This document shows positions 7,188-48,900 of a stretch of DNA of 64,000 nt, piece by piece (positions within the stretch are counted from its first letter, which is position 1; each line of letters starts with the position of its first letter). Below the pieces are notes generated by a model. It had not been told where the DNA came from. It saw nothing but the letters and a program-made list of their open reading frames with translations, and did no database searches. Made by a program: the position numbers and the translations under genes. Source of the stretch: Thermoplasmatales archaeon (GTDB lineage: Archaea > Thermoplasmatota > E2 > DHVEG-1); assembly GCA_041305025.1 (NCBI GenBank), contig JBFYMG010000025.1, forward strand, positions 5,590 through 69,589, given 5' to 3'.

Positions 7188-8144
7188 TTAATCGTTTATC
7201 CGTTCTATAATTAAATCAAGTATCTCTTCTGGTCCTCTGATCTTCTTCAACTCTTTTTTAGCAATGAGGGGAGTACCCTCTATATTTTTCTTATTAACTT
7301 CCTTATCTGTAAAAAGAACGGCGTATCTCTCTGTTATTTTAGAGATGCTACTGACAATTTGTGCTTTTTTAATTATTTTTTTGTCGTATTTGTGAACACA
7401 AGTCAATATTATTCTTTCTTTGTCTTTGCTAAGTGCCTCAAAAGGACTTCGTTCCATGGGAATTATCTTGTACCCGACACTTTCCAATATGGAGAATATC
7501 TCCATTTGAAAATCTCTGAGATGTTCTGTTTCTCCATGAAATGATGTTGTCTCTTTTTTATCCGAGAGTGAAGGTTTTAGAATATCTATGGGCGTGGTTA
7601 CAGGGCTACCAAGTAGCTCCTCAATTCGTGAAGCAATATCCACTCGTGCATTCATGCCGTCTTCATACATACTTGCTGTTCTACGCGATACTCGCACATA
7701 TCGTGCAAACGAACCTAGAGAGATATTTTGTTCCTGTCTAAGTTTTTTGAGTTTTTCTCGATCCAGATTAACATACAGACCGCCAGGTGCTGCATATGCC
7801 TTTAGAGGCATTCCTTCAAGAAGATAATCTCTGAGACTGTTTGGCGTTATAGTTTGAATTCCAAATCTATCGTAAACAACATCGTCTTCAAGAAATCCTA
7901 TTCCGCTTCTTTCTCCAATTAATAATGGAGAGCCCCTCAATAGTATAGATAATACTCTTAGTTCCTTGGCAACGTCCTCTGATAAAGCATCTATATTTGT
8001 CAAAACTTTAATTATTAGTAACGAATTGTCCCTTCTTGCAACTAAATCAAAACCTATCGGACGTATAATGCATAGATCAGAGACATAAAACCCTGCTTTG
8101 GTCAAGGTTTCTCTGATGTTTCCTAACAGCTCTGTTCGATCCAT
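7188..8144 (-). CDS. Putative HTH (XRE-type) transcriptional regulator, COG1395-like archaeal family
   Basis: Central HTH_3-like segment ISLGSFARYVRVSRRTASMYEDG within an approximately 320-aa protein, the typical size of the archaeal COG1395 family. Divergent from tiaS. Confidence 0.55.
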   Translation of the reverse strand: MDRTELLGNIRETLTKAGFYVSDLCIIRPIGFDLVARRDNSLLIIKVLTNIDALSEDVAKELRVLSILLRGSPLLIGERSGIGFLEDDVVYDRFGIQTITPNSLRDYLLEGMPLKAYAAPGGLYVNLDREKLKKLRQEQNISLGSFARYVRVSRRTASMYEDGMNARVDIASRIEELLGSPVTTPIDILKPSLSDKKETTSFHGETEHLRDFQMEIFSILESVGYKIIPMERSPFEALSKDKERIILTCVHKYDKKIIKKAQIVSSISKITERYAVLFTDKEVNKKNIEGTPLIAKKELKKIRGPEEILDLIIERIND

Positions 8145-8190
8145 TTGCAGGTGAAGCTAAAGTAAAATTTAATATATAATAATATCGGGA

Positions 8191-9518
8191 GTGAAATTAT
8201 CTGGATAGGAATAGATGATACTGATTCAAAAAGAGGGGGATGCACAACATATGTAGCTCGGGCCATAGTCAAAAAATTAACAAGGGATGGATATGACATT
8301 ATAAGATACCCGCGACTTGTAAGATTAAATCCAAACATACCTTGGAAGACAAGAGGCAATGGAGCAATTTGTATACAATTTGGAAAAGGTATGGGCAAGA
8401 AAATTAAGATAGGAGAAATGGAAAATGAAAATATCTTCTGCTATACCAAAAAGTCATCTGAGAAATACAAAGAAGCCGATATAAAAAAAATAAGGAATCT
8501 CTTAGAATCTATTGTAGATAAGTACGCGAGATTTGAAGATACAAATACAAACCCCGGATTTGTCATTCTGCGGGATCAACCATCTTTTGACATCTATGAG
8601 CAAACGGTAAAAGAAGTCGTTAAAATAAGGGATATCGAAAGATTATTGAAATCAATTGATGCAGTTTATAAGGGTTATAAAAACTGTAGAGGAATCATTG
8701 GAGCTACCGCCGCAATAGCTTGGTCGCCTTTAGAAGATAAGACGTACGAGTTGATTGCTTATAGAGAGAGAAAGAAATGGGGAACAAAAAGAACAGTAGA
8801 TGCAGATTCAGCCAAAAAGATGGATAAAGCCTGTCCATCAACTTTTGACAACTATGATTACAGAAATAAACATAATCGACTCACCCCAAGTTCACCTTGC
8901 CCCATATTATATGGCATAAGAGGCGATGATGCAAAAGAGTTAATACGCGCCAGAGCTCTCATAAAATCTGAGAAAGTTGACTGCTGGATGATTTTTGAGA
9001 CGAATCAGGGTACCGATGATCATCTTTTAAATAGGAACATAAGTGATGTGCAGCCATATCAATCAGTTATAATAGAGGGCACTATAGAAACAAATCATCA
9101 TACAATAAAAGGTGGCCATGTCATATTCACAATTAAAGACGCTACGGGAAAAATTGATTGTGCTGCCTATGAACCTACAAAGGAGTTTAGAAGAGTCATT
9201 AGAGAGCTACGCGTAGGAGATATTGTTGAAGTCTATGGTGGTGTAAGAAAGAAACCTTTAACTGTCAATATTGAAAAAATAAAGATAAGGCATCTAGCAA
9301 AACAGATTGAAAAAATAGAGAACCCCATTTGCCCAAAATGTGGTAAACACATGAAATCAAAAGGAAAAAATCAAGGTTACAAATGTATAATTTGTGGTAA
9401 GACAAGTAAAAAACCATTGATGAAAGAAAAAAAACGGGCAATTAAAAATGGTTTTTATGAGGTTCCGGTGTGCGCTAGAAGACATTTGAGTAAACCATTG
9501 AAGCGAATGGCACCATAA
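8191..9518 (+). CDS. tiaS: tRNA(Ile2) 2-agmatinylcytidine synthetase TiaS; N-terminal frame discontinuity
   Basis: In-frame N-terminus ...IIWIGIDDTDSKRGGCTTYVA... is the TiaS hallmark. C-terminal Zn ribbon CPKCG...CIICG. No ATG/GTG/TTG lies in frame between the stop at 8163 and Met-8391. GTG at 8191 becomes in-frame (V/M-K-I-I-W-I-G-I-D-D) only if the A-run 8194-8196 has one extra A. Confidence 0.75.
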
Positions 9519-9530: not shown

Positions 9531-9561
9531 GGTTTTTGCTACTTGGTTTCTAACATCCATT

Positions 9562-9634
9562 GCGGGTGTAGTGTAGTCTGGTATCACTTAAGCTTGCCAA
9601 GCTTAAAACTCGGGTTCAAATCCCGGCGCCCGCA
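9562..9634 (+). tRNA. tRNA-Gly (anticodon GCC)
   Basis: Manual cloverleaf: acceptor GCGGGTG/CGCCCGC; anticodon stem TAAGC/GCTTA with loop TTGCCAA; T-arm CTCGGGTTCAAATCCCGG; no encoded CCA; 73 nt. Confidence 0.85.
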
Positions 9635-9660
9635 TTTTTAGTAACCTAAGGGAGCATGAA

Positions 9661-10332
9661 ATGTTAAAGCTTGATTTACACGTTCATTCACAATATTCAG
9701 AAGATGGTGCTGGCCATCCTAAAGACATAATGAAACAGCTTCAAATAAAAGGATTGCAAGGGATGGCAATAACTGATCATAATAACATACAAGGATCGCT
9801 CGAAGCTCTCAAACTTAAACCCAAAGATTTCATTATAATTCCCGGTATAGAAATTTCAACTGCTGATGGGCACCTCATAGCATTAGGAGTAAAAGAAAAC
9901 ATCCCTAGAGATCTGTCTGTAGAAGAAACTGTAGATAAAATTATTGATGCTGGCGGAATAGCCATTGTGCCTCATCTTTTTAGAAAAATGTCAGGTATAA
10001 AAAAAGAAAAACTTGAAATAATCTATGAAAAAATCCCCGCAATGGAAGTATTCAACGGCTGCAGTCTACCAGAAACAAACATTAAAACGGCAAAGGTCGC
10101 AAAAGAATTCAAGTTAGGCGGAACAGGTGGCAGTGATGCACATGACCCATCATATGCAGGATATGGCTATACTGTTGTAGAGTCAACAGATATGGAAATA
10201 GATTCCATTCTATCGGAGATTATTGGCAAAAAGACATGGGGTGAGGGAACCACCATACCACTACAAGTAAGACGTGATCGGATGATAAAAGCAATTAAAC
10301 AGTTCTTCGAGCGCGGTTTTAAGCGAATTTAA
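9661..10332 (+). CDS. PHP-domain metal-dependent phosphoesterase (TrpH/YciV-like)
   Basis: DLHVHS...ITDHN...GIEIS...SDAH motifs in PHP-typical spacing; 223 aa. Confidence 0.8.
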   Translation: MLKLDLHVHSQYSEDGAGHPKDIMKQLQIKGLQGMAITDHNNIQGSLEALKLKPKDFIIIPGIEISTADGHLIALGVKENIPRDLSVEETVDKIIDAGGIAIVPHLFRKMSGIKKEKLEIIYEKIPAMEVFNGCSLPETNIKTAKVAKEFKLGGTGGSDAHDPSYAGYGYTVVESTDMEIDSILSEIIGKKTWGEGTTIPLQVRRDRMIKAIKQFFERGFKRI

Positions 10333-17636: not shown

Positions 17637-17729
17637 AGTTCGTCAATAGACGTAACTAAAATACACAATTATAAAAACAATAAATTGTTTTCTGGAGAAT
17701 TAAATAAAGGAGGCGCATTAATACGTCGA

Positions 17730-18994
17730 ATGAAAAATCATCCAAAGTTTCTGGTTTCTATAAACTGCCAGTTGAAAAAAGAATAGAATTTGTTGGACAA
17801 TTCTCAGATTTAAGCAAAGATGAGGTAGGTTTGTTTTCATCTTGTCTTAGCATAGAAGTTGCAGATAGGATGATCGAGAATGCTCTAGGAACATTTGAGT
17901 TGCCTCTAGGCGTTGCAGTTAATTTTCTCATCAATGAAAAGGATTATCTTATTCCGATGGCAACGGAAGAATCAAGTGTTATAGCTGCTGCAAGTAACGC
18001 AGCAAAAATCGCCAGGGGCAAAGGTGGATTTAAGACGGAATGCTCAAAGCCTTTAATGATTGGTCAAATTCAAATTTTAGGCATAGATGATATTGCCAGT
18101 GCGGCACAAAAAATCATGGACCACAAAAAAGAAATCTTACGACTTGCAAATGCCCAAGATAAAATTCTTGTAGATTTGGGTGGTGGAGCAAAAGACCTCG
18201 AGGTACGAATACTCAATAGCCCCCTTGGAAAAATGATTGTTGTTCATTTGATTGTTGATGTTCGTGATGCCATGGGGGCAAATGCTGTTAACACAATGTG
18301 TGAGGCATTGGCACCATCTCTTGAGGAAGTAACAGGCGGAAGAGTAAGACTAAAGATTCTTTCAAATCTTGCTGATAAAAGAATATTCAAGGCCAAAGCC
18401 ACCTTTGATAAAGAAACAATGGGTGGAGAGCATGTTGTTGATGCATTTCTTGAATCCTATATACTAGCAACTATTGATCCTTACCGAGCAGCTACACACA
18501 ACAAGGGCATTATGAATGGCATAGATGCACTGATCATTGCAACTGGAAACGACTTCCGCGCAATTGAAGCAGGAGCCCATGCCTATGCGTCACGAAGCGG
18601 GAGCTATTCTTCACTTACCACATACCATAAAGATGAAAATGGAAATCTTGTAGGAGAAATAGAACTGCCTCTCGCAGTAGGCATTGTAGGCGGTGCGGCT
18701 AACATGCATCCTAAGGCAAAGCTTTGCAGAAAGATACTTGGTATAAAAACTGCTCAAGAGCTTGCCGAAGTTGTCGCAAGTCTAGGACTTGCACAGAACT
18801 TTGCTGCAGTATTTGCTCTCTCAACAGTAGGAATTCAAAAAGGACATATGTCGCTGCATGCAAAGAATATTGCGGTAATGGCTGGCGCAGAAGGAAAAGA
18901 AATCGACAGCCTGGCAGAGCAATTAATCAAAGAAAACAAGATAAAACTTGACCGAGCAAAAGAAATACTCGAAAAGATGAGAAAGACTAGATAA
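17730..18994 (+). CDS. hmgA: HMG-CoA reductase, class II type; N-terminal frame discontinuity
   Basis: DAMGANAVNTMCE (class-II DAMGAN), ENALGTFELPLGVA. The in-frame N-terminal extension ...SSKVSGFYKLPVEKRIEFVGQFSDLSKDEV resembles class-II HMGR N-termini but has no in-frame ATG/GTG/TTG. ATG at 17730 joins this frame only if the A5 run 17733-17737 is A6 (giving MKKSSKVSGFY...). An AGGAGG lies upstream at 17708-17713. Confidence 0.85.
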
Positions 18995-25433: not shown

Positions 25434-26741
25434 ATGCAATCCTATAGAAGTCACTATTCAAAAGATGTAACTAAGGAAGATTTTGGTAAATCTATCACTG
25501 TTGCAGGTTGGGTTGAAGACATACGAAATATTGGTTCTATTGCCTTTGTTATTATTCGCGATAAAAAAGGAACTCTTCAACTTACACTTCTTAAAAAGAA
25601 AGCTCCCGAAATATTTGAAAAACTAATATCCTTTCCAAGAGAATCAATTATATCTGTTAAAGGTCTTTGTAAAGAAAATGAAAAGGTAAGAAATGGATAC
25701 GAAATTCTACCTGAATCTTTTGAGATTTTATCTGTTGCAGAAACGCCGTTACCATTAGGCATAGTAGACAAAGTTGAATCAGATTTTGATACAAGACTGG
25801 ACAACAGAGTTATTGATTTGAGAAAACAAGAAACTCAGGCAATATTCAAAATAAGAAATACTGTTATTGCTGCCGTTCATGAATATCTGCGATCCCAAAA
25901 TTTCATAGAAGTGCATACCCCCAAGATCATTGCGAGTTCTTCTGAAGGCGGAACCGACGTGTTCAAGGTAAAGTATTTTGAAAAAGAGGCTTTTTTGGCC
26001 CAGTCTCCACAACTTTATAAACAGATGTTGATGGCGACAGGTTTGGATCGAGTGTATGAAATTGCATGGTATTTCAGAGCTGAAGAGCACAATACTCGTA
26101 GGCATCTTAATGAATCCACGGCCGTAGATTTAGAAATGGCTTTTATTAAAGACGAAGAAGAGGTAATGAATGTTTTAGAGGGTCTTGTTCATAGTATGTG
26201 GAAGAAGGCAAGTGAATGCAAGCAAGAACTCGAAATTTTAAATAAGAAAATTACTGTACCAAAGTTACCTTTTAAACGAGTAAAATATGATGATGTAATT
26301 AAGAAGTTGAATAAGAAAGGCAACAAGATGGCCTGGGGCCAGGATCTTGGTGCTGAAGAAGAAAAGCTTCTTGGCGAAATAATGATGGAAGAGGGCTACG
26401 ATTTTTACTTTATAACTAAATATCCTCTAGAGGCTAAGCCGTTTTATACAATGCCTGAAGGCGATAAATATTCGCGAGGGTTTGACCTGGAATGTAAAGG
26501 CGTCGAAGTTGCTTCTGGTAGCCAGCGCATACATGATGAAAAACTATTGAAAGAAAGACTAAAGGCGTGCGGTCTTAATCCCATAGATTTTGAGTCATAT
26601 CTAAAGGCCTTTAGATATGGCATGCCGCCCCATGGTGGTTTTGGTTTTGGAATTGAACGATTTTTGATGGAATTGCTAGACATTAAAAATATCAGAGAAT
26701 GTATTTTATTCCCAAGGGATAGAACAAGACTAACGCCTTAG
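25434..26741 (+). CDS. aspS: Aspartyl-tRNA synthetase (archaeal/eukaryal type)
   Basis: OB-fold N-terminus, [22 protein letters not shown] (motif 2), GGFGFGIER (motif 3); 435 aa. Confidence 0.85.
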
Positions 26742-35951: not shown

Positions 35952-37046
35952 ATGTTTGCGGAGGAGAAGATGAAATCAAAAATAATATTAGTAAGTTTGA
36001 TTGGCGTTCTTTTGTTAGGTATTTTGATAAGTTTTTCATCAATTGGAAGTTGTGAAGATGAAATTATTCTTTTTGTTGGCGGTACGGGTCCTGGGAACTA
36101 TAGCAGTATTCAAGATGCTGTGGATGCAGCTGGTGTCGGAGATACAATTATTGTGCATAATGGAATTTATTACGAGAATTTAGTTTTGAATAAATCAATT
36201 ACTATTGTTGGTGAAGATAGATTTAATACTATTATTGATGGCAATGGGGTTGGTGATGCCGTTTTTATATTGGCTGATAATGTTTGCATACGTAATTTTA
36301 CAATAAAAAACAAAGGAGCCAGTGGCACTGGTATAAACATTAGAGCTAATCAAAGTACCATAAGTGAGAATCTAATAATTGATAATAACTGGAGTGGTAT
36401 TGAGGCGGGATCGGCTTTTAGAAATTGTACCGTTAGTGAAAATACTATCATGAATAATGGATATGGAATATTTTTTGGTAAAAAAACGACGGGCATTAAT
36501 TTTAGCGTAAATACTATTAGTAACAACAGCTTGGATGGAATATATCTGGATCAGTCTAGCACTGGTATTGTTACTGATAACATTATTGACAAAAGTGGTG
36601 ATGACGGATTAAGTCTTACTTTTAGTAACGGAATTGTCGTTTATAAAAATTTTATTATCAACAGCGTAGACAATGGCATCTATTTGTATTCATCTACGGC
36701 AGTGATAAATGAAAACATAATTGCGGGAAGTAGTGAAGGAGGTATCTTTTTACGAAATTCAAATGAGAGCTGGATAGTTTGGAATAATATACTTGAGAAT
36801 GGGAAAGGAATAGAGGCGACATTTCTAAGTTGTAATAATGTGATAAGTAATAATAATATTACAAGCAACGGTATTGGAATATATTCGTCAGCCGATGCAG
36901 GTAGTAATGATTTTTTAGACAACAGTTTTTCAGATAACAAAGCCGATATTCAAAAGGATTCGTCTAAAACACCGGGTTTTGAAATATTACTTGTATTTAT
37001 TTCAATAGTTTTTGTTATGTTTTTAAAGATTTTTAAAAAGCAATGA
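35952..37046 (+). CDS. Right-handed parallel beta-helix (NosD/PbH1-repeat) cell-surface protein with PGF-CTERM anchor
   Basis: Signal peptide; repeated N/G-rich approximately 22-aa beta-helix turns (NGIYLxxS..., ITSNGIGIYSS). C-terminal SKTPGFEILLVFISIVFVMFLKIFKKQ is PGF motif + TM + basic tail. Confidence 0.65.
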   Translation: MFAEEKMKSKIILVSLIGVLLLGILISFSSIGSCEDEIILFVGGTGPGNYSSIQDAVDAAGVGDTIIVHNGIYYENLVLNKSITIVGEDRFNTIIDGNGVGDAVFILADNVCIRNFTIKNKGASGTGINIRANQSTISENLIIDNNWSGIEAGSAFRNCTVSENTIMNNGYGIFFGKKTTGINFSVNTISNNSLDGIYLDQSSTGIVTDNIIDKSGDDGLSLTFSNGIVVYKNFIINSVDNGIYLYSSTAVINENIIAGSSEGGIFLRNSNESWIVWNNILENGKGIEATFLSCNNVISNNNITSNGIGIYSSADAGSNDFLDNSFSDNKADIQKDSSKTPGFEILLVFISIVFVMFLKIFKKQ

Positions 37047-37171
37047 TAGTTTTTTACTTAGTTAAATCCAATTAGATACTTATTATTTGTTATGATGAAA
37101 AATTGAAAAGGACATCGTTATAAAAGGAATTATAAAAATGTTTATAAATTAAGAATAGTTGAATAGGAAAT

Positions 37172-38299
37172 ATGAGAAAATATGAAAGATGTGATAGATG
37201 TATTATGGATACTTCAGATCCAGATATAACTTTTAATGAAAATGGTTTTTGTAATCATTGCGAAGAATATTTTACAAAAGAAAAAAGATTTGTTTTGAAA
37301 GGCGAAGAAGGAAGAAAGAAATTAGAAAAGATTGTTGAGATGATTAAAGAAGAGGAGAAGGAAAAAAAATATGATTGTGTGCTTGGAGTAAGTGGAGGAA
37401 CAGATAGTAGCTATGTAGCGTACTTGGCAAAAAAATTTGGCTTAAGAGTTCTTTTATTAAATCTTAATAATGGCTATGATACTGAAATAGCTCAGAAAAA
37501 TATTAAAAATATAGTAAATAAAACAGGATTTGATATTTACAACTATAAAGTAGACTGGCAAGAATTTAGAGATCTTCAACTTTCATATTTGAATGCCTCA
37601 GTTGTGGATGTCGAGGTAGCTTCCGATCATGCCATTATGGCAGCAACATATAATATTGCAAGTGAATATAAACTAAGATATATCTTAAGTGGAACAAATA
37701 TCGTTACTGAAGGAATAATGCCAAAATCTTGGAATTACCAAAAAAATGATTTAAGAAATTTAAAAGATATACATAAAAAGTTCGGTAAATTTAAATTAAA
37801 AACTTATCCAACAATGGGTCTGCTCAAATGGTTGTATTACAGAGTCATTAAAAGAATACGATTAATAGAATTTTTAAATTATCTAGATTATAATAAAGAT
37901 GAAGTTAAAAAATTACTCAAGGATGAATTTGATTGGAAAGATTATACAGGAAAACATTATGAATCCAGATTTACTAAATTCTACCAAACTTATATTCTAC
38001 CAAAAAAATTTAACATAGATAAAAGAAAAGCCCATTTTTCTACTTTGATATGTTCTGGTCAGATGACAAAAGACGAAGCGCTCAAAGAGCTACTAAAGCC
38101 ATTGTATAATGAATTAGAACTTAAAAAAGAGAAAAAATTTATCCTAGATAGATTACAAATTTCGGATGAAGAATTTGAAGATTTGATGAAAAAACCTGTT
38201 AAAAAGCATGAAGAATATGCTACTGATAGATTGTTTCGTTCATTTTTATTAAATTTAAGCAACATCCAAAAAAAGTTATTGAAGCAGAAAGAGAATTAG
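37172..38299 (+). CDS. N-acetyl sugar amidotransferase (WbuX/PseA-like, PP-loop ATPase)
   Basis: N-terminal Cys cluster CDRCIMDTSDPDITFNENGFCNHC and PP-loop LGVSGGTDSSY; 375 aa. Confidence 0.75.
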   Translation: MRKYERCDRCIMDTSDPDITFNENGFCNHCEEYFTKEKRFVLKGEEGRKKLEKIVEMIKEEEKEKKYDCVLGVSGGTDSSYVAYLAKKFGLRVLLLNLNNGYDTEIAQKNIKNIVNKTGFDIYNYKVDWQEFRDLQLSYLNASVVDVEVASDHAIMAATYNIASEYKLRYILSGTNIVTEGIMPKSWNYQKNDLRNLKDIHKKFGKFKLKTYPTMGLLKWLYYRVIKRIRLIEFLNYLDYNKDEVKKLLKDEFDWKDYTGKHYESRFTKFYQTYILPKKFNIDKRKAHFSTLICSGQMTKDEALKELLKPLYNELELKKEKKFILDRLQISDEEFEDLMKKPVKKHEEYATDRLFRSFLLNLSNIQKKLLKQKEN

Positions 38300-38317
38300 G
38301 CAAAATATTGTAAAGCG

Positions 38318-39430
38318 GTGAGTGAGAAATATTTGATACGAAAAAAATCTATAAAAATTTGTTTTTTGGCAAATGGGGACGCTAGCGATGTTTTTACACA
38401 GATGTGGATTGATTATTTCGCAAAAAAATATAGTGTTATTTTAATAACGGACAATAAGCCCCACGGAATAGCTTGCAATGTAGAGGTATATTATATCAAA
38501 TGGGTTGGTAAAAATCAGTTTATTGGATTTGTTTTAAAAGTTAGAAAATTAATTAAAAAAATCAATCCTGATGTTATTTATGCTTTATCTCTTAATAAAT
38601 ATGGATTAATAGGTGCTTTATCTGGATTCCATCCATTTTTTGCAAGTCCATATGGAAGCGATATTGCTACATATCCGGACAGATCTGTAATTTCAAAATA
38701 TATAATTAAATACGTTTTAAAGAAAGCAGATATTATACAAGTTCAAGATCCGCTAAGTGCAGATAGAATAATAAGCTTAGGCACTTCTTCTAAAAAAATT
38801 CATACAATCCCGTGGGGTGCAAATATTAATTTGTTTAGACCAACAGATATGGAGAAAGAATATGACGTGATAAATATTCACGGAAATTCTTTCACTCAAC
38901 ATGATGTAGCGACTTTTATAAAATCATTACCAACAGTGATTAATAGATATCCTAATGTAAGATATATTCTACTTGGAAATAAGCAACCTGCATATAAATT
39001 GGCTAAAAAAATTGGAGTTTTAGATAATATAATATTTGGTGGTTTTATAAATCATAAAGATATTCCGTTTTATATTTGCCAATCAAAAATTTTTGTTGAC
39101 TGTTTTTATCCATCTCACAATCATGGAGGTCATACATATGGTGTTGCAGTGCATGAAGCCATGGCCTGTGGTATTCCCACAATCTTAGCAAACAGACCAA
39201 CAGTTAATCAACTCATTGGAAAAGACAAGTGGCACCATGGTAAAACATTTGTTGGTGGTAATTATTTAGATTTGGCTGAAAAAATTATTGAATTATTAGA
39301 TTCTAAAGAGGAACGTAATAGAATTTCGGTTCTTAATAGAAAAATTATTGAAAAAAAATTTGATTGGAATAAAAATATTATTAGTATTGAAAAGATGATA
39401 ATTAAAAATTATAGAGGAAAAAATCAATGA
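38318..39430 (+). CDS. Glycosyltransferase family 4 (GT-B)
   Basis: GT4 architecture with C-terminal EAMACGIPTI-type motif. Confidence 0.7.
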   Translation: MSEKYLIRKKSIKICFLANGDASDVFTQMWIDYFAKKYSVILITDNKPHGIACNVEVYYIKWVGKNQFIGFVLKVRKLIKKINPDVIYALSLNKYGLIGALSGFHPFFASPYGSDIATYPDRSVISKYIIKYVLKKADIIQVQDPLSADRIISLGTSSKKIHTIPWGANINLFRPTDMEKEYDVINIHGNSFTQHDVATFIKSLPTVINRYPNVRYILLGNKQPAYKLAKKIGVLDNIIFGGFINHKDIPFYICQSKIFVDCFYPSHNHGGHTYGVAVHEAMACGIPTILANRPTVNQLIGKDKWHHGKTFVGGNYLDLAEKIIELLDSKEERNRISVLNRKIIEKKFDWNKNIISIEKMIIKNYRGKNQ

Positions 39431-40377
39431 AAAATAAAAGGGAGATATCTAGAGAAATCCATATACAGTACGGAAGATTAAAAATTTTAAGAAATATTTT
39501 TTCCTTAAATTTTCCCATTTCAAATAAAAATAATAGCATTAGTTGCAAACCATTTTTTATTATTGGATCGGGAAGATCGGGAAGTACTCTATTAAGAGCC
39601 ATTTTAGTTAATAATTCTAAGATAGCAATACCACCAGAATCCTATGTATTACCAAATACTGTTCGAATTTTTTGGACGTATAATTTTTTGCCTTGGAAAG
39701 AACTAGTCAAACTAATAATTGGTGAATTTGAATCACATAATGATTTTTGTAGCTGGGATATCAATATGCAAGATGCATATAGCAGAATATTGAATCTCAA
39801 TAAAAAGAACCAAACTTTAGCAAATATTATCGATGAAATTTATTGTTATTATGCAGAATTAAAATTTCCAGATTTTGAGATTTGGGGAGACAAGACCCCA
39901 TACAATACTCTAAAATTAGATTGGATTGATCTCATATTCAGTAATGCAAAATATATTCACATCATAAGAGATGGGAGGGATGTAGTAAGTTCTTATCTAA
40001 AAATGGGTCGTTATAAAACAGTTGAAGAAGCGGCGCATCGTTGGAAAAAAAGTATAGAATTATGTGAAGAATTTAAAAAAAATAAATCAGAAAATGAATA
40101 TATTGAAATTAGATATGAAAAATTAGTTACTGAGCCTGATCACGAGATAAAATGTATTTGTAATTTTTTAAACATAGATTTTGACATATCAATGTTAGAT
40201 ATTAAAAAAATTGTATGTAAATTAGGAGATGTAGATGTTAAGCAACATGAAAACATTAAAAATCCAATAAATGCTAATTCTATAGGAAAATGGGAAAAAA
40301 ACTTGACGGATAAAGAAAAAATTAAAGTAAAAGAATTATTAAACGATACCTTGAGTGAATTAAATTATAGAATATAA
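39427..40377 (+). CDS. Sulfotransferase-family protein
   Basis: PAPS 5'-PSB-like FIIGSGRSGSTLL and 3'-PB-like RDGRDVVSS; 316 aa; 4-nt overlap with upstream GT4. Confidence 0.65.
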   Translation: MKNKREISREIHIQYGRLKILRNIFSLNFPISNKNNSISCKPFFIIGSGRSGSTLLRAILVNNSKIAIPPESYVLPNTVRIFWTYNFLPWKELVKLIIGEFESHNDFCSWDINMQDAYSRILNLNKKNQTLANIIDEIYCYYAELKFPDFEIWGDKTPYNTLKLDWIDLIFSNAKYIHIIRDGRDVVSSYLKMGRYKTVEEAAHRWKKSIELCEEFKKNKSENEYIEIRYEKLVTEPDHEIKCICNFLNIDFDISMLDIKKIVCKLGDVDVKQHENIKNPINANSIGKWEKNLTDKEKIKVKELLNDTLSELNYRI

Positions 40378-40432
40378 TTAAAATTGGAATAAGCTAAACA
40401 ATTATCCTTATGATAACGAATATGGTAATTAA

Positions 40433-41101
40433 ATGAATCTAATCGAATATTGGGATAAGAGAATATCTGAAAATAAACTATCTGGTACAGGAGATATTTC
40501 TCTTCATCCAAAGGTTAATGAACTTATAAAAAATTTAAAAATGAAAACTATTAGTTCCCTTATAGAATTCAAGGGAAAAAAAGTTTTAGATGCTGGATGC
40601 GGGGTAGGCATATATAGCAAATTCGCACAAGAGATGAATGCATCGCAGGTCATTGCAATAGATTTCGCAACTTCCGCAATAAAAATGACAAGATCAATAC
40701 AGATCGAAGGAATAAATGCAGATGTATCATACCTTCCTTTTAAAGACGGTTGTTTTGATGTAGTTATGTGTTTATCTGTGCTGTATCATATAGTTGATGA
40801 TGAACGATGGGAAATAGCAATAAATGAATTAATTAGAGTTTTAAAAACAGATGGGAAAATTCTTTTACAGATAGAGCATGATATCGATACACCAAATCTC
40901 GATCATTATCATAAAAGACCTTTTGAATCATATTTGCAAAAATTTAGAGAGTTAAAACTAAATGTTGTAAAAGTCGAAGATGTATATTCTCCACCCGATA
41001 ACAGTCTATTAAGATTATTACTAAGATTCATGCCAATTTTAAGATTGATTTTGATTAAAAAACGCAAACAAAATTTACTCATTGTTCTTAAACGAAAGTA
41101 A
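40433..41101 (+). CDS. Class I SAM-dependent methyltransferase
   Basis: Motif I VLDAGCGVGIYS; post-I acidic residue; 222 aa. Confidence 0.75.
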   Translation: MNLIEYWDKRISENKLSGTGDISLHPKVNELIKNLKMKTISSLIEFKGKKVLDAGCGVGIYSKFAQEMNASQVIAIDFATSAIKMTRSIQIEGINADVSYLPFKDGCFDVVMCLSVLYHIVDDERWEIAINELIRVLKTDGKILLQIEHDIDTPNLDHYHKRPFESYLQKFRELKLNVVKVEDVYSPPDNSLLRLLLRFMPILRLILIKKRKQNLLIVLKRK

Positions 41102-42535
41102 TGTACTTTTAAAGAAATTAAATTCTTTCATACCAACTGTTTTCGTAAAAAAGAGAATTGAAAAATATAAACCTGTTCCAATCATGATTACTGCCATCAA
41201 ACTCAATATTCTTTCTGGAGAGATCAGATAAATAAAAATAAACATTACAATTGATGCGAAAAGAGATTTTAGGATGGATTTGTAATCAATATTAAAAGTA
41301 AAAAAACGAGATGAATAATATATTGTTAAAATCATTGCTATTGCGTAAGCAATTAAAGTGGTAACAGCTGCACTTATCATACCAAATCTAGGAACAAATA
41401 AAATATTTAAAAAAAGATTAAAAATCGATGCAACAAGCCATATGACGGCAATCAGTTTAGTATTTTTTTTAAGAAAAAGTATCTGCGCATAAAATCTAGT
41501 TATGCCCTGCATAATGACTGCTGCGGCAACAATTGGAGGTATTAAATAAGCATTTTCTGCTATTTCTTTAGTAGTTAATATCTCCAGTAGTGGTCTAGAA
41601 ATTGCAATTAAACCAAAAACACTTGGAATAGTAATTATTAAAAAATATTTTAGACTATGACTTAAAACTCTTTTCACATCATCTATTTTTCCATCTTCGT
41701 AAGATTTAACCGTTATAGGTATTAAAGATACGCCTATCAAACTGACAAATATAAAAATAGTATTACCAATAGTGTATCCTGATGAGTAGTAACCCGTTGA
41801 AGCTACACCAATAAAAAGCGCTATTAAATATCTATCACTATATGAAACAATCCATGTTGTCAAAGAAGAAGGAAGTAGCGGTATGCTGAAAGATAAATAT
41901 TCCTTTGATGAAGAAAAATTTGGCATCGCTATACCGATATCACGGACTACCAGGTAAAACAATATAATAAAAATAAAAAAATTGGCCAAAAAAATTGATA
42001 GAACAGCACCGAAGAGGCCAAATTTTAAATATAACAAGAATACGCATACAAAACCTATTTTTAGGTAAGCCAATAGTATAGAAAAGAAGGAAAATTTATT
42101 GGCCTGCTGTATTGCAAGAAAATAGAACTTAAATAAAGTATTTAAACAGATGAATGGAAGAACCCAAGAAGCAACGATTAGTATCTGGATATGGTTTGGG
42201 TATAAAAGGTTACCAATTATCATAATAATTGATACCATGAAAGTTGAAGATATAGTAATTAAAATTGCTGAAGAATAAATTCCTTCTTGTAGAGTTATCT
42301 TATTTTTTCCATTTGAAAGGAATCTAAGTACGGCCTGTGGTATTTGCAAAAGTGAAAATTCGGGTAGCAGTTCCAGCAAAACTATAATTAGAGACCATAC
42401 ACCATAGTCATATATATCAAGGGATTTTGTTAATAAAGGGAGGAGTATTAGCCCCGATGGAGTGATTAATATTTGCGTTATAAACATTAATCCAAAATTT
42501 TTCCCTACACTCTGATAAAGTTTGTAATTGTTCAT
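41075..42535 (-). CDS. Polysaccharide/oligosaccharide flippase (Wzx/MOP family)
   Basis: 486 aa, about 12-14 predicted TM segments, typical Wzx length and topology, inside a glycosyltransferase cluster. Confidence 0.65.
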   Translation of the reverse strand: MNNYKLYQSVGKNFGLMFITQILITPSGLILLPLLTKSLDIYDYGVWSLIIVLLELLPEFSLLQIPQAVLRFLSNGKNKITLQEGIYSSAILITISSTFMVSIIMIIGNLLYPNHIQILIVASWVLPFICLNTLFKFYFLAIQQANKFSFFSILLAYLKIGFVCVFLLYLKFGLFGAVLSIFLANFFIFIILFYLVVRDIGIAMPNFSSSKEYLSFSIPLLPSSLTTWIVSYSDRYLIALFIGVASTGYYSSGYTIGNTIFIFVSLIGVSLIPITVKSYEDGKIDDVKRVLSHSLKYFLIITIPSVFGLIAISRPLLEILTTKEIAENAYLIPPIVAAAVIMQGITRFYAQILFLKKNTKLIAVIWLVASIFNLFLNILFVPRFGMISAAVTTLIAYAIAMILTIYYSSRFFTFNIDYKSILKSLFASIVMFIFIYLISPERILSLMAVIMIGTGLYFSILFFTKTVGMKEFNFFKSTLLSFKNNE

Positions 42536-42577
42536 TATTTCTGTCCTTTAAAATTTTAATTCATAATTGAATTTTTT

Positions 42578-43765
42578 TCAGTTTAACTGCTTTTTTATTA
42601 TTAAATTTTTACACACTTCTTCAATTTTTTTTGAAACATCTATCCATCGGTTGTAGTTGTTTACATAACGTCTTCCATTTTTTCCCATTTCTAACCTCAA
42701 TTTAGGGGTTTTTAATAGTTTTATAATTGCATTTGATAATTGTAATGAATTATTTGATTCGGTCATTATACCAGCATTTACGTTTTCTATGAATTCCAAA
42801 CCCGGTATTTTTGAAGCAACTATTGGTTTTTCGCATGCCGCATATTCATAAATTTTTAGAGGGGAGAGACCGATTTTTACATTTCTTGTTTCCGTAAATG
42901 GTGCTACACATACGTCCCCCGCATTGATGTAAGTTAGCGTCTTTTCGTGAGGAATTAATCCGGTAAAAATAAAACTGTCAAAAACTTTGTTTTCTATTGT
43001 AAGATTTACAAGATGCTGTTTTATTACACCATCACCAATTATTAAAAATTTTGTATTGGGAATTTCCTTCAAGATGGTTGGAGCTGCTTGAATGAGATAT
43101 TCTATCCCTTGCCATGGCACAAGATTACCTACAAAACAAACGTGATAATCAGTTTCATTCAATTTTAATTCTCTCAAGCATTCCTTCTTATTTTTGGGTT
43201 TAAATAAATCCGGATCAACTCCATTTGGTATTATAGAAATTTTAGATGAATCAATATGGAATTCATTCACTATGTAGTCTTTGATTTCTTTTGTAACTGC
43301 AATTATTGTATTACATAGTCGATAGGATTTTTTTTCAAGTATTAGTAAAAATTTGTACATCAAACTATTTTGTGTTATCAATTTTTTAGAAAGAGCTTCA
43401 TCACTAATAATTCCATGAGATAACATAATGATTGGTATCTTTTTCTTTGAAAAATATTTAAACAACGGTACATAAAAAGTATCAGTTATTATAACATCAA
43501 AATTTTTCGTTTCTTTATTAATTTTTTTTAAAATCTTAATCAATCTAAATAATACTATTGGCGATTTAAAATTCTCTCCATAAATTCTTTCGTTAACAAC
43601 GACATTCTTTTTGATATATGATTTTAATTCCTCATCCAATATAGGATTTGGAGAAATGATGGTAATATTCCAATTTTTTGGAAAGTGTTTAACTCTATTT
43701 TTAATTGAAATAACTCGGACGTTTTTTTTAGTTAAATCGTCAAATGTTATCCAGCATAAATTCAT
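42578..43765 (-). CDS. Glycosyltransferase family 4
   Basis: GT-B fold signatures (EKKSYRLCNTIIAVT, C-terminal E-x7-E region); 395 aa. Confidence 0.72.
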   Translation of the reverse strand: MNLCWITFDDLTKKNVRVISIKNRVKHFPKNWNITIISPNPILDEELKSYIKKNVVVNERIYGENFKSPIVLFRLIKILKKINKETKNFDVIITDTFYVPLFKYFSKKKIPIIMLSHGIISDEALSKKLITQNSLMYKFLLILEKKSYRLCNTIIAVTKEIKDYIVNEFHIDSSKISIIPNGVDPDLFKPKNKKECLRELKLNETDYHVCFVGNLVPWQGIEYLIQAAPTILKEIPNTKFLIIGDGVIKQHLVNLTIENKVFDSFIFTGLIPHEKTLTYINAGDVCVAPFTETRNVKIGLSPLKIYEYAACEKPIVASKIPGLEFIENVNAGIMTESNNSLQLSNAIIKLLKTPKLRLEMGKNGRRYVNNYNRWIDVSKKIEEVCKNLIIKKQLN

Positions 43766-44955
43766 TTTCTATTCTCTCTTAAAATCTTCCGATATATCTT
43801 GAGTGTATTTTTTGCAATGTTTTCCCACGTATAATTCTCTTCCGCGCTTTTTCTATTTTCATTTCCCATCGTTATTCTTTCTTCAGGATGTAGTATGAGA
43901 TAACTTATCTTTTCGGCTAGTTGTTCTACATCTCGTGGTTTAACAAGAAAACCATTTATGCCATCTTTCACTGCATCTGAAATTCCACCAACGTCTGAAG
44001 CGATAATAGGTTTACCAGCTGCCATTGCTTCAGGGATGACCGTAGGAAATCCCTCCGATAAAGAAGTGATTACAAAAATATCTGCTTGTTCCAAATATTT
44101 TGGGATTTCTTCATTTGCAATGGCCCCGACAAATGTAATATTTTTATCTATAGCCAATATACGAGCAAAATTTTCTAGGCTGTTTTTTAGAGGCCCATCG
44201 CCGACTAACATCAGTTGAGATTCTGGATAGATATCTATAATTCTCTTCGTTGCTTTGAGTAAATATTCTAAACCTTTTACTTCAACCATTCTTCCAATCC
44301 AGATGAGAGTCGAACCATAACTCTTCATCTTAGAGGGCGATTTCGGTTTAATCATTGACAAATATACTCCATTGGGTATAACAGTGATAAAATCCTCTTT
44401 TAAACCTAAATTAATCAATCGTTTTTTATTTTCGTTAGAAACAGTTATTATGCTATCTGAATGCGATATAATTTCAATCAACATTTTTTTAAAAAATCCT
44501 TGTTTAGGGATTGTATAGATATCGCTTCCGTGAGCTGTTATAATTAATTTTTTTCCAGTTAATTTTTTAATAAATAATCCAGCGTATCCAGATGGCAAAA
44601 ATTCGGCATGAATAATATCGCATTTTTTGGCAATGCGTAATCCTTTAAAGAAAAAACATACCATAAAGAATATTAGCTGAAATTTGGCTAAAAGAATGCG
44701 AGAAAGGTTGCGAGGTATTCCTCCACCATAAGCAACTTTTTGTCCTTTTTTTGTAAACCAATATTGAAATCTGTAGATTTCAACACCATCGATAAATTCT
44801 TGATCTTTTGTATTCACATCATGAGGAGCAATAACGCTAATACGTACATCGTTTTTTACAAGTTCTTTTGCCAGATTATGAACAAAAATTCCAGCGTAAT
44901 CGCCAGCATATCTTGGATAAGATGTAGTAAGAATGCATATTTTCATATTATTCAT
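43762..44955 (-). CDS. Glycosyltransferase family 4
   Basis: LSEGFPTVIPEAMAAGKPIIASDVGG motif; 397 aa; 4-nt overlaps on both sides. Confidence 0.78.
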   Translation of the reverse strand: MNNMKICILTTSYPRYAGDYAGIFVHNLAKELVKNDVRISVIAPHDVNTKDQEFIDGVEIYRFQYWFTKKGQKVAYGGGIPRNLSRILLAKFQLIFFMVCFFFKGLRIAKKCDIIHAEFLPSGYAGLFIKKLTGKKLIITAHGSDIYTIPKQGFFKKMLIEIISHSDSIITVSNENKKRLINLGLKEDFITVIPNGVYLSMIKPKSPSKMKSYGSTLIWIGRMVEVKGLEYLLKATKRIIDIYPESQLMLVGDGPLKNSLENFARILAIDKNITFVGAIANEEIPKYLEQADIFVITSLSEGFPTVIPEAMAAGKPIIASDVGGISDAVKDGINGFLVKPRDVEQLAEKISYLILHPEERITMGNENRKSAEENYTWENIAKNTLKIYRKILRENRK

Positions 44956-45899
44956 CTGGATAATTCTTTATTTGATTCCATATCAAACATCATGGCAAAA
45001 ATTATTGATTGTAAACCCATAATTAAAAATAACGCAGTTAAAACTACAGTTCCTGTAGAATATCCGCCAGTCAAAATTCTGAAATATAGAACATCGATTC
45101 CGAGTATAAGTCCAAAAGGAAATAATATAAGCCCAACAAGATAAAATAGAAACAATGGATGGAAATTTACTCCACCATATTCCCTCCATATTCTTTTGAA
45201 AAAACCGCTAACTAATAACCCTGTCAATCTAGCAGAATATCTCCCCATCTTTATTTTCGATTTTTCATTGCCATATCTTGGAGACATCTCTACATCTGCG
45301 ATTCGAAATTTACCGACATTTAGCTTTATCAACAAATCATTAGGATAACCATATCCATCATATATATCATCCACATCGATAGTTTCTAATGCTTTTCTTG
45401 AAATAGCAGTATATCCATTTTGTGGATCAATAACATTCCAATATCCTGATGCTATCTTTGTAAGAAATGTTAACATTCCGTTTCCGAATGCTCTAAATTT
45501 TGGCATCTTCATTCTTTCTTTGTGTGTTAGTCTATTTCCTTTTGCATAATCGATTTTCCCTTCGACAATTGGATCAATTAATCTGTGCAGTTCGTTGGGA
45601 TCCATTTGTGCATCACCGGCCATAACTGCAGTAACGTCAATATTCAACTCGAGAGATTTTTTGTATCCCGTTTTGATTGCCGCGCCAACGCCTTTATTTT
45701 TTTCATGCCTAACCAAAATTAATTTATTGGAAAATTTTTCCTGTAATGAATCTACCATCTTTACTGTATTGTCTTTGCTGTTGTCGTCAATAACTATGAG
45801 TTTATCGACAAAATCAGGAATCGTTGTGATTGTTTGCAAGATCAGTTGTTCTTCATTATATGCTGGAACAACAACCGCTATTGTTTTTTCTTTGTACAT
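44952..45899 (-). CDS. Glycosyltransferase family 2 (dolichyl-phosphate sugar synthase-like) with C-terminal TM helices
   Basis: VVVPAYNEE, DDNSKDNT, DAQ motifs (GT-A DxD region) plus two C-terminal TM segments. Confidence 0.8.
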   Translation of the reverse strand: MYKEKTIAVVVPAYNEEQLILQTITTIPDFVDKLIVIDDNSKDNTVKMVDSLQEKFSNKLILVRHEKNKGVGAAIKTGYKKSLELNIDVTAVMAGDAQMDPNELHRLIDPIVEGKIDYAKGNRLTHKERMKMPKFRAFGNGMLTFLTKIASGYWNVIDPQNGYTAISRKALETIDVDDIYDGYGYPNDLLIKLNVGKFRIADVEMSPRYGNEKSKIKMGRYSARLTGLLVSGFFKRIWREYGGVNFHPLFLFYLVGLILFPFGLILGIDVLYFRILTGGYSTGTVVLTALFLIMGLQSIIFAMMFDMESNKELSR

Positions 45900-45994
45900 C
45901 TATAGTCCTCCTCGCCAGCGTTACAATTTACATTATATCATTATTATGGATATTTTTAACTATTAAAGATATACAAAATGAATTACATAAACCT

Positions 45995-48900
45995 TTATTT
46001 CACTTTATAAATATGCCAATCAACCTCAACCTGTTTCTTTATAGGATTGGCAGAGATATGCATATAGATATCGGCTACAGATGGATAATATTGTGTCAGA
46101 TCATGAGTGGAAAGAATGTAATCCGCATTAACATTTCCGGAAAGTATTAGGTTGCTTAGGTTATTTGAATTCTTAAATTCTACATGTGCATCTGGCAACC
46201 AAAAATACATATCCGAATGCATGATTTTCCAATAGCTTAAATCCATCCCGCCTCCAGAAAAGGCACCGAAACCATCTTCAAAAATTATAGATGAATCAGG
46301 GTCATTTTGCATAAACCAACGAGCGGGTTTATTCATTCCATCATTCATAACAAATGCATTCTCACTTATTTGCTCATCGATAATTGGAATGCAAAGCAAT
46401 AATGATAGGAGTAGAGCAACTATTAAAAAAATATTAGCAGATTTGGATGACTTTTTAATAAATGAAAAATTTTTTTTCAAAAACCATTTTAAAGTTATGC
46501 AAATGGTAAATAATATCAAAATGACTCCGAACAAGATACGAAATAAAGTAAAACAATCAACATTAAATATGTAATTCCCACGTAAACCAGTTATCCATAA
46601 GAGATCTATATTGTTAACGATGTGATAATTTTCTATTGGGAAAAAAAGAATGAAAAAAAAGCCAAGTAAAATTAAAATATAACTAATATGGAAATTAACA
46701 TTGCGATTTTTATTTTTTATTCTTTGAAATAAGTTAATGCCGATAACGCCTAACATAAAAATGATTGGCAGGCCCGGAGAAGCATATCTTGTATAAATGC
46801 TATAGTGGGTTGAAAAAATATGAGTGCTTGTAATTATTATAAGAAAGAAAATAGAAGACAGCCCATACAATGTAAAAACAGCTAGAGATTCTTTTTTTTC
46901 ATTTTGGAATTTTTTCCAATTTATGACTAAAAAGACAGAAAACGCTGCGAAAACAATGTAACTCATAACAACAAAATAGTTAATTTCATTTAATACTATA
47001 TGAATAAATCTAGTAAAATTTGATAAATTCGAAAAAACTAAAGAGAGATTGGCAAGATAATAAGAATCAGAATAGCCCATTGTCAATGATTTGCTCTTAT
47101 ACATCATGTATCCAATAACAGGTATGAATGGCAGAAAAATTAACCCGTATTTGATTGCAAAAATTTTCCTATTTTTTATAATTTTGTAGAGAAAAACAAA
47201 AAATAAAGCAGCCAGCATGGCTACACCTATAGATCTAACCATAATAAGAAATCCTACAGAAAAACCGGATAAAAGAGAATAAAATACGAACTTTTTATCA
47301 AAATTATCACACGTAAATGTTTTTAATATCAAAAGGCAGGAAATTAGAAATATGGGATAAAAAGCATTTTCACTCATTGTTACATAGGTGTAAGCAGTTA
47401 TTATTGGTAAAATTGCGATTATTATGGAAGTGACAAAAGATAATTTTTTGCTGACAAAATTTTTCATTATAAAAAAAACGGGAAAAATCACCAGCGAAGA
47501 AAGTACGCAGTTGATAAATAACATAGCACGGTATACTACATCCATGTTGTTTCCCAGAAGATATGTAGGAGCTAAAAAATATGAGTATCCTGCGGGAGGA
47601 TATGCAGTTGAAAAGGGTACATTCCCTATAATCGTAAAGTTACCTTGAAATATGTATTTGGCCAAGACACCATATATAAGCTCGTCACCATATATCCGTG
47701 GAGCGACAAAGAAATAACTTATTAAAAACTTGACGGCAATAAGAACAAAGAAACTTAAAATTATAAGACCGAACCATCCACCCAATTTCATGAAAAAGTG
47801 AAGACATTTGGAACGGTTTAGTATTTGTCTTATCGTTTTGATATTATAAACGATAATTATACTTATTCCTAATAGTATTATGAATATCAAAGCACCGATT
47901 CCTTGAGGCATCTTATTAGATGTAATACCTGCCTGATCTGACGTAACAATTATTTTTCTTAAATCTATGCTACTTGATCCATTATTATCAAAGATTTCAA
48001 GAAATGCATTGTATGAGCCTTCTTTGTTGTAAATATATGTTGTTATTCCAGTGGAATTTGAATTCCAATCGTAGATTCCATCGCCGTTAAAATCCCATCG
48101 AAATATAGTGATCTTTCCATCAGGATCATACCCCGTTCCATTAAAAGATACAATTTTTCCTTCATGAACATTCGCGTCACCGCCAGCATATGCCATTGGT
48201 GACAAATTAATTTCATCGCTAATGTCTTTGTTTGTTTTAATCATAAAAACGTTGTAGCCGTTGGGCCACTGAGTATAACCCACTAGCGTGAATCCACCGC
48301 CATCTGTTCGTATCAAAGAAAGTGCTCGTTCGTCACCATCACCTGAATAATTTTTATTCCATTGCATATAACCATTGGAATCTGTTTTCACAAGAAAAAA
48401 ATCATATGAAAGCAATACTTCAGAGTGCCCTGCGATTGCAAAACCATTGTCCGGGGTTTGAATTAAAGAATATGCACCATCATCCTGCTTTCCACCATAG
48501 GTCCTATTCCACTCCATAGTACCATTTTGATCTGTTTTTACTAACCAGAAGTCACTACTGCCTGAACCATATGAAAGTGTATAACCGGCGAGCGCAAAAC
48601 CGTAATCTTGGGTTTGAATTAAAGAATATGCAAAATCATCTTCTGGCCCACCATATGTTTTACTCCAACATAGGTCGCCGTTAGAATAAATTTTTATTAG
48701 AATAAAATTGTTTTTTTCTTCACCAAATGAATTAGAAATGCCTGCAATGGCGTATCCGCCATCCGGGGTTTTAGTCACTGATGTAGCTTGATCATCTTTA
48801 ATTCCACCATATGTTTTATACCATTCAACACCGCCAGTGGAGTTAGTTTTAATCAAAAGAAAATCATAGTCATTTCCTCCAACAAGTGGTGAGTTTGAAG

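Follow-up and report, generated by a model that had tools for sequence, protein, structure and literature searches.

Translation of the tiaS gene in a clade of Thermoplasmatota is predicted to start at an AUC codon preceded by a Shine-Dalgarno element

The tiaS gene of the Thermoplasmatales archaeon analysed here is quite probably intact, and its 439-aa product would be translated from an AUC codon at position 8199 of the 64-kb stretch of DNA under study (the window) by initiation directed by a Shine-Dalgarno (SD) element. It is proposed that the initiation proceeds as described below. A short 5' leader would carry the SD GGGAGUGA (8187-8194), which would be paired with the 3' end of 16S rRNA, and this pairing would set AUC in the P site. 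Presumably, Met-tRNAi would then initiate at AUC despite the mismatch at the third position, giving a product that begins with M-W-I-G-I-D-D-T-D. The combination of a weak codon and a strong SD appears to be an old, selected arrangement across a large Thermoplasmatota clade, and its most likely effect would be to keep the level of TiaS synthesis low and fixed, the strong SD making up in part for the weak codon. The elements concerned with translation are as follows.

8163 to 8165, + strand: in-frame TAA stop, which closes the TiaS frame upstream
8187 to 8194, + strand: SD-like motif GGGAGTGA, with a predicted duplex of -8.8 kcal/mol with the archaeal 16S rRNA 3' tail, 4 nt before ATC
8191 to 8193, + strand: out-of-frame GTG inside the SD motif, judged not to be the tiaS start
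8196 to 8198, + strand: ATT, a possible secondary near-cognate start, not conserved in relatives
8199 to 8201, + strand: ATC, the proposed tiaS initiation codon
8199 to 9518, + strand: predicted full-length tiaS coding sequence (439 aa and stop; TCKD, FLD, OB and Zn-ribbon domains)
8391 to 8393, + strand: internal ATG, wrongly called as the start by ORF callers

The identity of the gene was examined by Pfam and phmmer searches. Four TiaS domains scored above the cut-off (PF22641, 5.5e-50; PF08489, 1.5e-40; PF01336; and PF23783), and the TiaS_TCKD domain was matched from residue 3 of a protein begun at 8196, which places the start of the domain at 8202. The protein matched TiaS of Archaeoglobus fulgidus (3amt_A) with an E value of 2.8e-99, the alignment starting at V3-W4 of the A. 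fulgidus protein and IWIGIDDTDS of the query, and the N-terminal GIDDTDS...CTTY segment is shared with this characterised enzyme. Like the window TiaS, A. fulgidus TiaS (PDB 3AMT, 3AU7 and 4RVZ) consists of TCKD, FLD, OB and Zn-ribbon domains and aligns from W4-V-G-I-D-D-T-D-S. It starts with M-R-V-W, presumably from a canonical start (only the protein was compared), while the window tiaS has AUC directly before Trp. By these similarities, the window gene is taken to be a bona fide TiaS, tRNA(Ile2) 2-agmatinylcytidine synthetase. TiaS agmatinylates C34 of tRNAIle2(CAU); no tRNA-Ile(CAU) gene was found within the 64-kb window.

The sequence around 8140-8260 contains ...tccatttgcaggtgaagctaaagTAAaatttaatatataataatatcgggaGTGaaattATCTGGataggaatagatgatactgat..., and translation of the TiaS frame (position mod 3 = 0) from 8166 onward yields N L I Y N N I G S E I I W I G I D D T D S K R G G C T T Y V A, with the conserved N-terminus IWIGIDDTDS encoded from 8199. 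Between TAA 8163 and ATG 8391, no ATG, GTG or TTG occurs in this frame; the first-pass annotation, which had reported the lack of a canonical start, was thus right for the whole interval from 8166 to 8390. The start-less stretch of tiaS amounts to 75 codons and is the longest among the long ORFs of the window. As that annotation had also stated, the ORF caller truncated the gene: the ORF listing of the window reports only a 375-aa ORF (8391-9518) for tiaS. A product from ATG 8391 would lack ca. 64 residues of TCKD, including the DDTD and CTTY segments. GTG 8191 lies out of the TiaS frame, again in agreement with the annotation, and its own frame encodes only five codons (VKLSG) before TAG at 8206-8208. 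The insertion of one extra A in the A3 run at 8194-8196 would yield GTG AAA ATT ATC TGG, so the arithmetic behind the earlier suggestion of a GTG-initiated TiaS is correct, and the A4 form exists naturally in L088/P0013 (ca. 66% identity) as GTG AAA ATT ATC TGG.

To place this arrangement among relatives, DNA of 17 GTDB species representatives, six contigs of the closest relatives, and 65 metagenome loci was compared, and a census was taken of the tiaS 5' ends of Thermoplasmatota MAGs and metagenomes (58 distinct sequences), which were aligned on an invariant Trp codon. All of the compared sequences come from uncultured organisms. gggagtgaaattatcTGG was identical in 11 independently assembled contigs of close relatives (81-91% aa identity), and in these contigs everything from the TATA element up to and including ATCTGGAT was invariant, while downstream third codon positions differed. 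More distant relatives carry other spacers (GTGAGACTATC, GTGAAAATATC, GTGAGATAATC, GTGATAGTTTATC, GGTGACATAATC and others), and an in-frame canonical start is likewise absent from them. In the census, 45 of the 58 5' ends had no in-frame canonical start at all, in seven the only such start lay 11 or more codons upstream, within the TATA region or farther out, in three the GTG belonging to the G-rich motif was in frame, and three had ATG exactly at the position of ATC, with a product beginning MWIG.... The first-pass annotation had offered an undercalled homopolymer, A3 for A4, with GTG 8191 as the true start. One extra A does restore a canonical ORF, and an A4 relative exists; however, since the spacers differ while the start-less layout stays the same, and since the A3 run is identical in the 11 contigs, an undercall is unable to explain the gap and is scarcely credible. 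The 5' ends of relatives were arranged in the same way and shared a conserved alternative start, a finding which that annotation had named among those that would speak against its reading. These comparisons indicate that the lack of a canonical start is genuine, is shared across the lineage and did not arise from a sequencing error, and the A4 form is best regarded as a minority spacing variant, neither ancestral nor the 'correct' state.

The codon preceding the invariant Trp was ATC in 53 of the 58 sequences, ATG in three, ATT in two, and ATA in none. An in-frame stop was present two to three codons before the Trp codon in ten sequences (nine ATC/ATT lineages and the ATG lineage L008). Among these, L043 reads tag TTT ATC TGG and L051 reads gtg taa AAT ATC TGG, and ATC is the sole near-cognate codon available in both. 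The information content per alignment column of the 58 sequences showed a sharp edge of conservation at the A of ATC. Downstream of ATC, codon positions 1 and 2 were invariant and position 3 was variable, which is codon periodicity; upstream of it, the -2 codon was most variable at its second position, a non-coding pattern. ATC accounts for only 15.6% of the Ile codons in these tiaS genes, and the next two conserved Ile codons after ATC are mostly ATA or ATT. Changes at third codon positions were counted on a neighbour-joining tree: four for ATC, at least 13 and 15 for the neighbouring Ile codons, and 16 to 18 for Gly, Thr and Ser codons. ATC thus appears to be conserved beyond the need for the amino acid, and coding constraint appears to begin there. 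The C of ATC is probably kept because only ATC-TGG avoids a canonical out-of-frame start directly behind the SD; ATA-TGG and ATT-TGG would make an out-of-frame ATG and TTG, respectively.

Two other readings were considered and rejected. Autoregulation through early AUA codons of tiaS does not fit the codons found: the Ile after Trp is ATA in 32, ATT in 21, and ATC in one of the 58 sequences, the next Ile is ATT, ATA or ATC, and neither early Ile codon is conserved as ATA. An N-terminal extension NLIYNNIGSE... does not fit either: TAA closes the frame at 8163, 10 of the 58 sequences have near in-frame stops, the upstream substitution pattern is non-coding, and the 'peptide' corresponds to a TATA box and SD read in frame.

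A start at ATT 8196, alone or together with ATC, would involve the same mechanism and give M-I-W-I-G.... This codon is near-cognate and in frame, 24 of the 58 relatives have ATT as their -2 codon, and the NCBI entries P0052 and P0110 start with MIWIG, implying an ATT start; P0052 is the annotation of the identical sequence L016, given as MIWIGIDDTDSIT. However, the -2 codon is varied (AAT, ACT, TTT, AAA, CCC and others), most of all at its second position, and L043 and L051 have no ATH there. The SD duplex would end only 1 nt before ATT 8196, as against 4 nt before ATC. Initiation at ATT 8196 is therefore considered unlikely in comparison with initiation at ATC 8199.

Complementarity of the G-rich motif, which is located 4-8 nt upstream of ATC, to the 3' end of 16S rRNA was evaluated using 5'-GAUCACCUCCU-3' as the anti-SD, which is the assumed conserved archaeal 16S rRNA 3' tail and not the sequence of this genome itself; this tail is generally conserved in archaea. 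With the assumed tail, a duplex of -5.4 kcal/mol or stronger was predicted in all 55 ATC/ATT lineages, its end lying 1-8 nt before the start. The median over all 58 sequences was -8.8 kcal/mol, and the mean of shuffled sequences was -4.3. No SD was found in the three ATG lineages (-1.1 to -1.6 kcal/mol). The motif occurs as GGTGA, GGAGGT, GGGGGT, GGGAGG and GGAGAGTGA, that is, its sequence differs and its complementarity is kept, which is more in keeping with an SD than with a start codon or a site bound by a protein. About half of the genes of the window are preceded by an SD at this spacing, aGGTGAaagtATG at 25434 being one example; the SD of tiaS belongs to the strongest fifth among the window's genes. 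In addition, the ATG lineage L008, which has no SD, is nested inside the ATC clade, suggesting that the change to ATG was accompanied by the loss of the SD.

The GTG at 8191 is conserved since it is part of the SD (GGUGA). A start at this GTG, after which a programmed -1 frameshift (or slipping of the ribosome along the A run) would produce V/M-K-I-I-W, is very improbable. GTG is kept in most relatives and an in-frame A4 version occurs in L088; in total, GTG is in frame in five sequences, of which L004, L006, L007 and L088 read through and L051 has a stop right after it. On the other hand, the distance from GTG to ATC is 8 nt in most relatives and 9, 10 or 12 nt in others, which would put GTG in differing frames and require shifts in opposite directions. 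GTG is missing in six ATC lineages, and in L051 it is directly followed by TAA. There is no X XXY YYZ slippery heptamer, the A run is absent in many relatives, no stimulatory structure is predicted near GTG 8191 (z = -0.81), and this GTG, being inside the SD, has no SD of its own. The first-pass annotation had left a choice of non-canonical initiation or recoding; the comparison supports the former, at ATC 8199, a codon that the annotation had not named, and does not support the latter.

The region upstream of tiaS was also inspected for promoter elements, listed below. The intergenic region between tiaS and the divergent gene is 54 bp, and the divergent pairing is kept in almost all relatives.

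7188 to 8144, - strand: divergent gene encoding a PDDEXK_19 and HTH_3 protein (318 aa), with ATG at 8144 and no SD
8157 to 8167, + strand: distal A-rich TATA-like element ctaaagtaaaa, at -42 to -32 from ATC, the candidate tiaS promoter
8173 to 8179, strand not assigned: conserved TATATAA, at -26 to -20 relative to ATC; its distance to the divergent ATG 8144 is 29-35 nt

TATATAA is the strongest TATA-like element and lies merely 20-26 nt upstream of ATC. If it drove tiaS, the SD-like motif would be absent from the mRNA, which is a point against SD-directed initiation. A leaderless or nearly leaderless mRNA transcribed from TATATAA, with its 5' end at or next to AUC and with the G-rich motif as a promoter or regulator-binding element, was therefore weighed. 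The centre of TATATAA is ca. 23 nt upstream of ATC, the G-rich motif lies between the two, and neither the divergent gene nor the ATG-type relatives seem to have a leader. However, leaderless initiation has been described for 5'-terminal AUG, GUG and UUG (PMC7531240), and the G-rich motif varies in sequence, keeps its complementarity to the anti-SD, and is gone exactly in the ATG lineages. Furthermore, TATATAA is probably the TATA box of the nearly leaderless divergent PDDEXK/HTH gene because its distance to the SD-less ATG 8144 is conserved in relatives, where the AT-rich element begins 27 ± 2 nt from the divergent ATG. The A/T pattern at -45 to -34 is moderately conserved among the 58 relatives, and a pyrimidine-purine step is found at 8186/8187 (-13/-12). 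The distal A-rich element and this step fit a tiaS transcription start near 8187, the first G of the SD, from which we infer that the SD would be included in the transcript. The leaderless reading is accordingly rated as improbable, and SD-directed initiation at AUC 8199 is preferred. Two TATA-like elements (8157-8167 and 8173-8179) are apparently interleaved in the tiaS/PDDEXK intergenic region. The RNA around the tiaS start folds no better than shuffled sequences (z = -0.81), and in an Rfam scan the downstream tRNA-Gly was the sole match, with no RNA family at the tiaS start.

The genes that follow tiaS are listed below.

9561 to 9635: tRNA-Gly(GCC), 43 nt after the tiaS stop
9661 to 10332: PHP-domain gene, next after tRNA-Gly(GCC)

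L088 has the same order of genes: L10-L1-PDDEXK/HTH, tiaS and PHP, followed by L11 and Spt5, which are encoded on the other strand. Elsewhere in the window, the GC content of 36000-48000 is 0.29-0.32, as compared with 0.35-0.40 for the remainder, and this low-GC part may have been acquired horizontally or may be a region of the surface-polysaccharide type.

The ATC arrangement characterises a single large clade, whose TiaS proteins share 57-91% aa identity with that of the window. The sister group of this clade (L011, L012 and L065) has ATG in place of ATC and lacks an SD. Within the ATC clade, ATT arose twice and ATG once. ATC therefore seems to have persisted through a long period of divergence, even though replacement of its C by G would suffice to produce ATG. 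More distant, GC-richer relatives (L013, L067-L072 and L082; 45-47% identity) have an in-frame GTG start of tiaS and no SD; this GTG lies ca. 23 nt downstream of a TTTTTAAT-like box, and these genes look leaderless. The start architecture of tiaS thus appears to have changed at least twice in Thermoplasmatota, among leaderless GTG, leaderless ATG, and SD with ATC.

The 120 nearest proteins in the database all derive from Thermoplasmatota MAGs or metagenomes. Roughly one third of these entries are N-terminally truncated, beginning at an internal M, V or L, and this holds for all of the closest ones (P0001, P0002, P0006 and P0041; 82-90% identity). Many others carry a spurious extension, ...LIYNNIGSE[I/N/T]IWIGIDDTDS, which is the translated TATA box and SD, and a minority begin with VKIIWIG, MINIWIG, MIWIG or MWIG. 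Standard gene callers, for which only ATG, GTG and TTG count as starts, thus systematically misplace the tiaS start throughout the clade. The truncated entries lose the catalytic DDTD segment, and such entries are at risk of being misread as pseudogenes or as missing AUA-decoding capacity.

A second gene of the window, that for HMG-CoA reductase (hmgA), also has no usable canonical start. Its ORF is open from 17708 to 18994, and the first canonical start, TTG 17831, is ca. 20 codons inside the Pfam domain. The relatives start with M-S-x-x-E-K-S-S-K-V-S-G-F-Y-K-L (MSNxEKSSKVSGFYKL), and the window sequence reads ACG TCG AAT GAA AAA TCA TCC..., with ACG 17723 where the relatives have ATG. ACG 17723 lies 9 nt behind a perfect AGGAGG (17708-17713), and ATT 17717 is also in the hmgA frame. 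Because an A5 run comes after an out-of-frame ATG at 17730, the site resembles an error by one missing A. The same ACG sequence is present in an independent assembly with 95% identity (L090, 895-945), and ATG occupies the position of ACG in L092 (985-1030). Thus, hmgA seems to start at the near-cognate ACG 17723, and at least two of the ca. 52 genes of the window appear to use near-cognate starts.

The archaeal initiation review lists only AUG, GUG and UUG as start codons (PMC7531240), and our literature search found no described non-canonical tiaS start and nothing specific on archaeal AUC starts. In E. coli, initiation at AUA, AUC and AUU reaches ca. 1-2% of that at AUG, and the N-terminal Met is still made (bioRxiv 10.1101/063800). 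The bacterial AUU starts of infC and pcnB of E. coli resemble the proposed tiaS start in that a near-cognate AUH codon preceded by an SD is conserved in an essential or housekeeping gene. Unlike infC and pcnB, tiaS is archaeal, so fidelity would be controlled by aIF1/aIF2 and not by IF3; its codon is AUC and not AUU; no autoregulatory loop is evident; and TiaS is no initiation factor. In eukaryotic and archaeal near-cognate initiation controlled by e/aIF1, the initiator tRNA likewise acts on a codon one base off AUG; unlike in those cases, the SD would preposition the codon in tiaS. In extracts of Sulfolobus, start codons other than the canonical ones are reportedly discriminated against by aIF1 (work cited in PMC8211752).

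These results suggest that tiaS has a deeply conserved natural AUC start, whose signature comprises a selected C, the gain of an SD, and a reversion to ATG with loss of the SD. The AUC of tiaS would be a ready substrate for tests of start-codon fidelity in the archaeal aIF1/aIF2 system, and the probable ACG start of hmgA suggests that the phenomenon may extend beyond one gene. We tentatively raise the possibility, itself doubtful, that this lineage tolerates and in places selects near-cognate starts behind strong SDs (AUC in tiaS and ACG in hmgA), and that the AUC of tiaS is a regulatory device. If this is true, TiaS synthesis would be tied to start-codon stringency, that is, to the activity of aIF1; a link of the tiaS AUC to initiation fidelity is speculation, in which it is of note that TiaS is the enzyme that separates the decoding of AUA (Ile) from that of AUG (Met). 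Alternatively, TiaS would be kept low enough to spare other tRNAs with the CAU anticodon from mis-modification.
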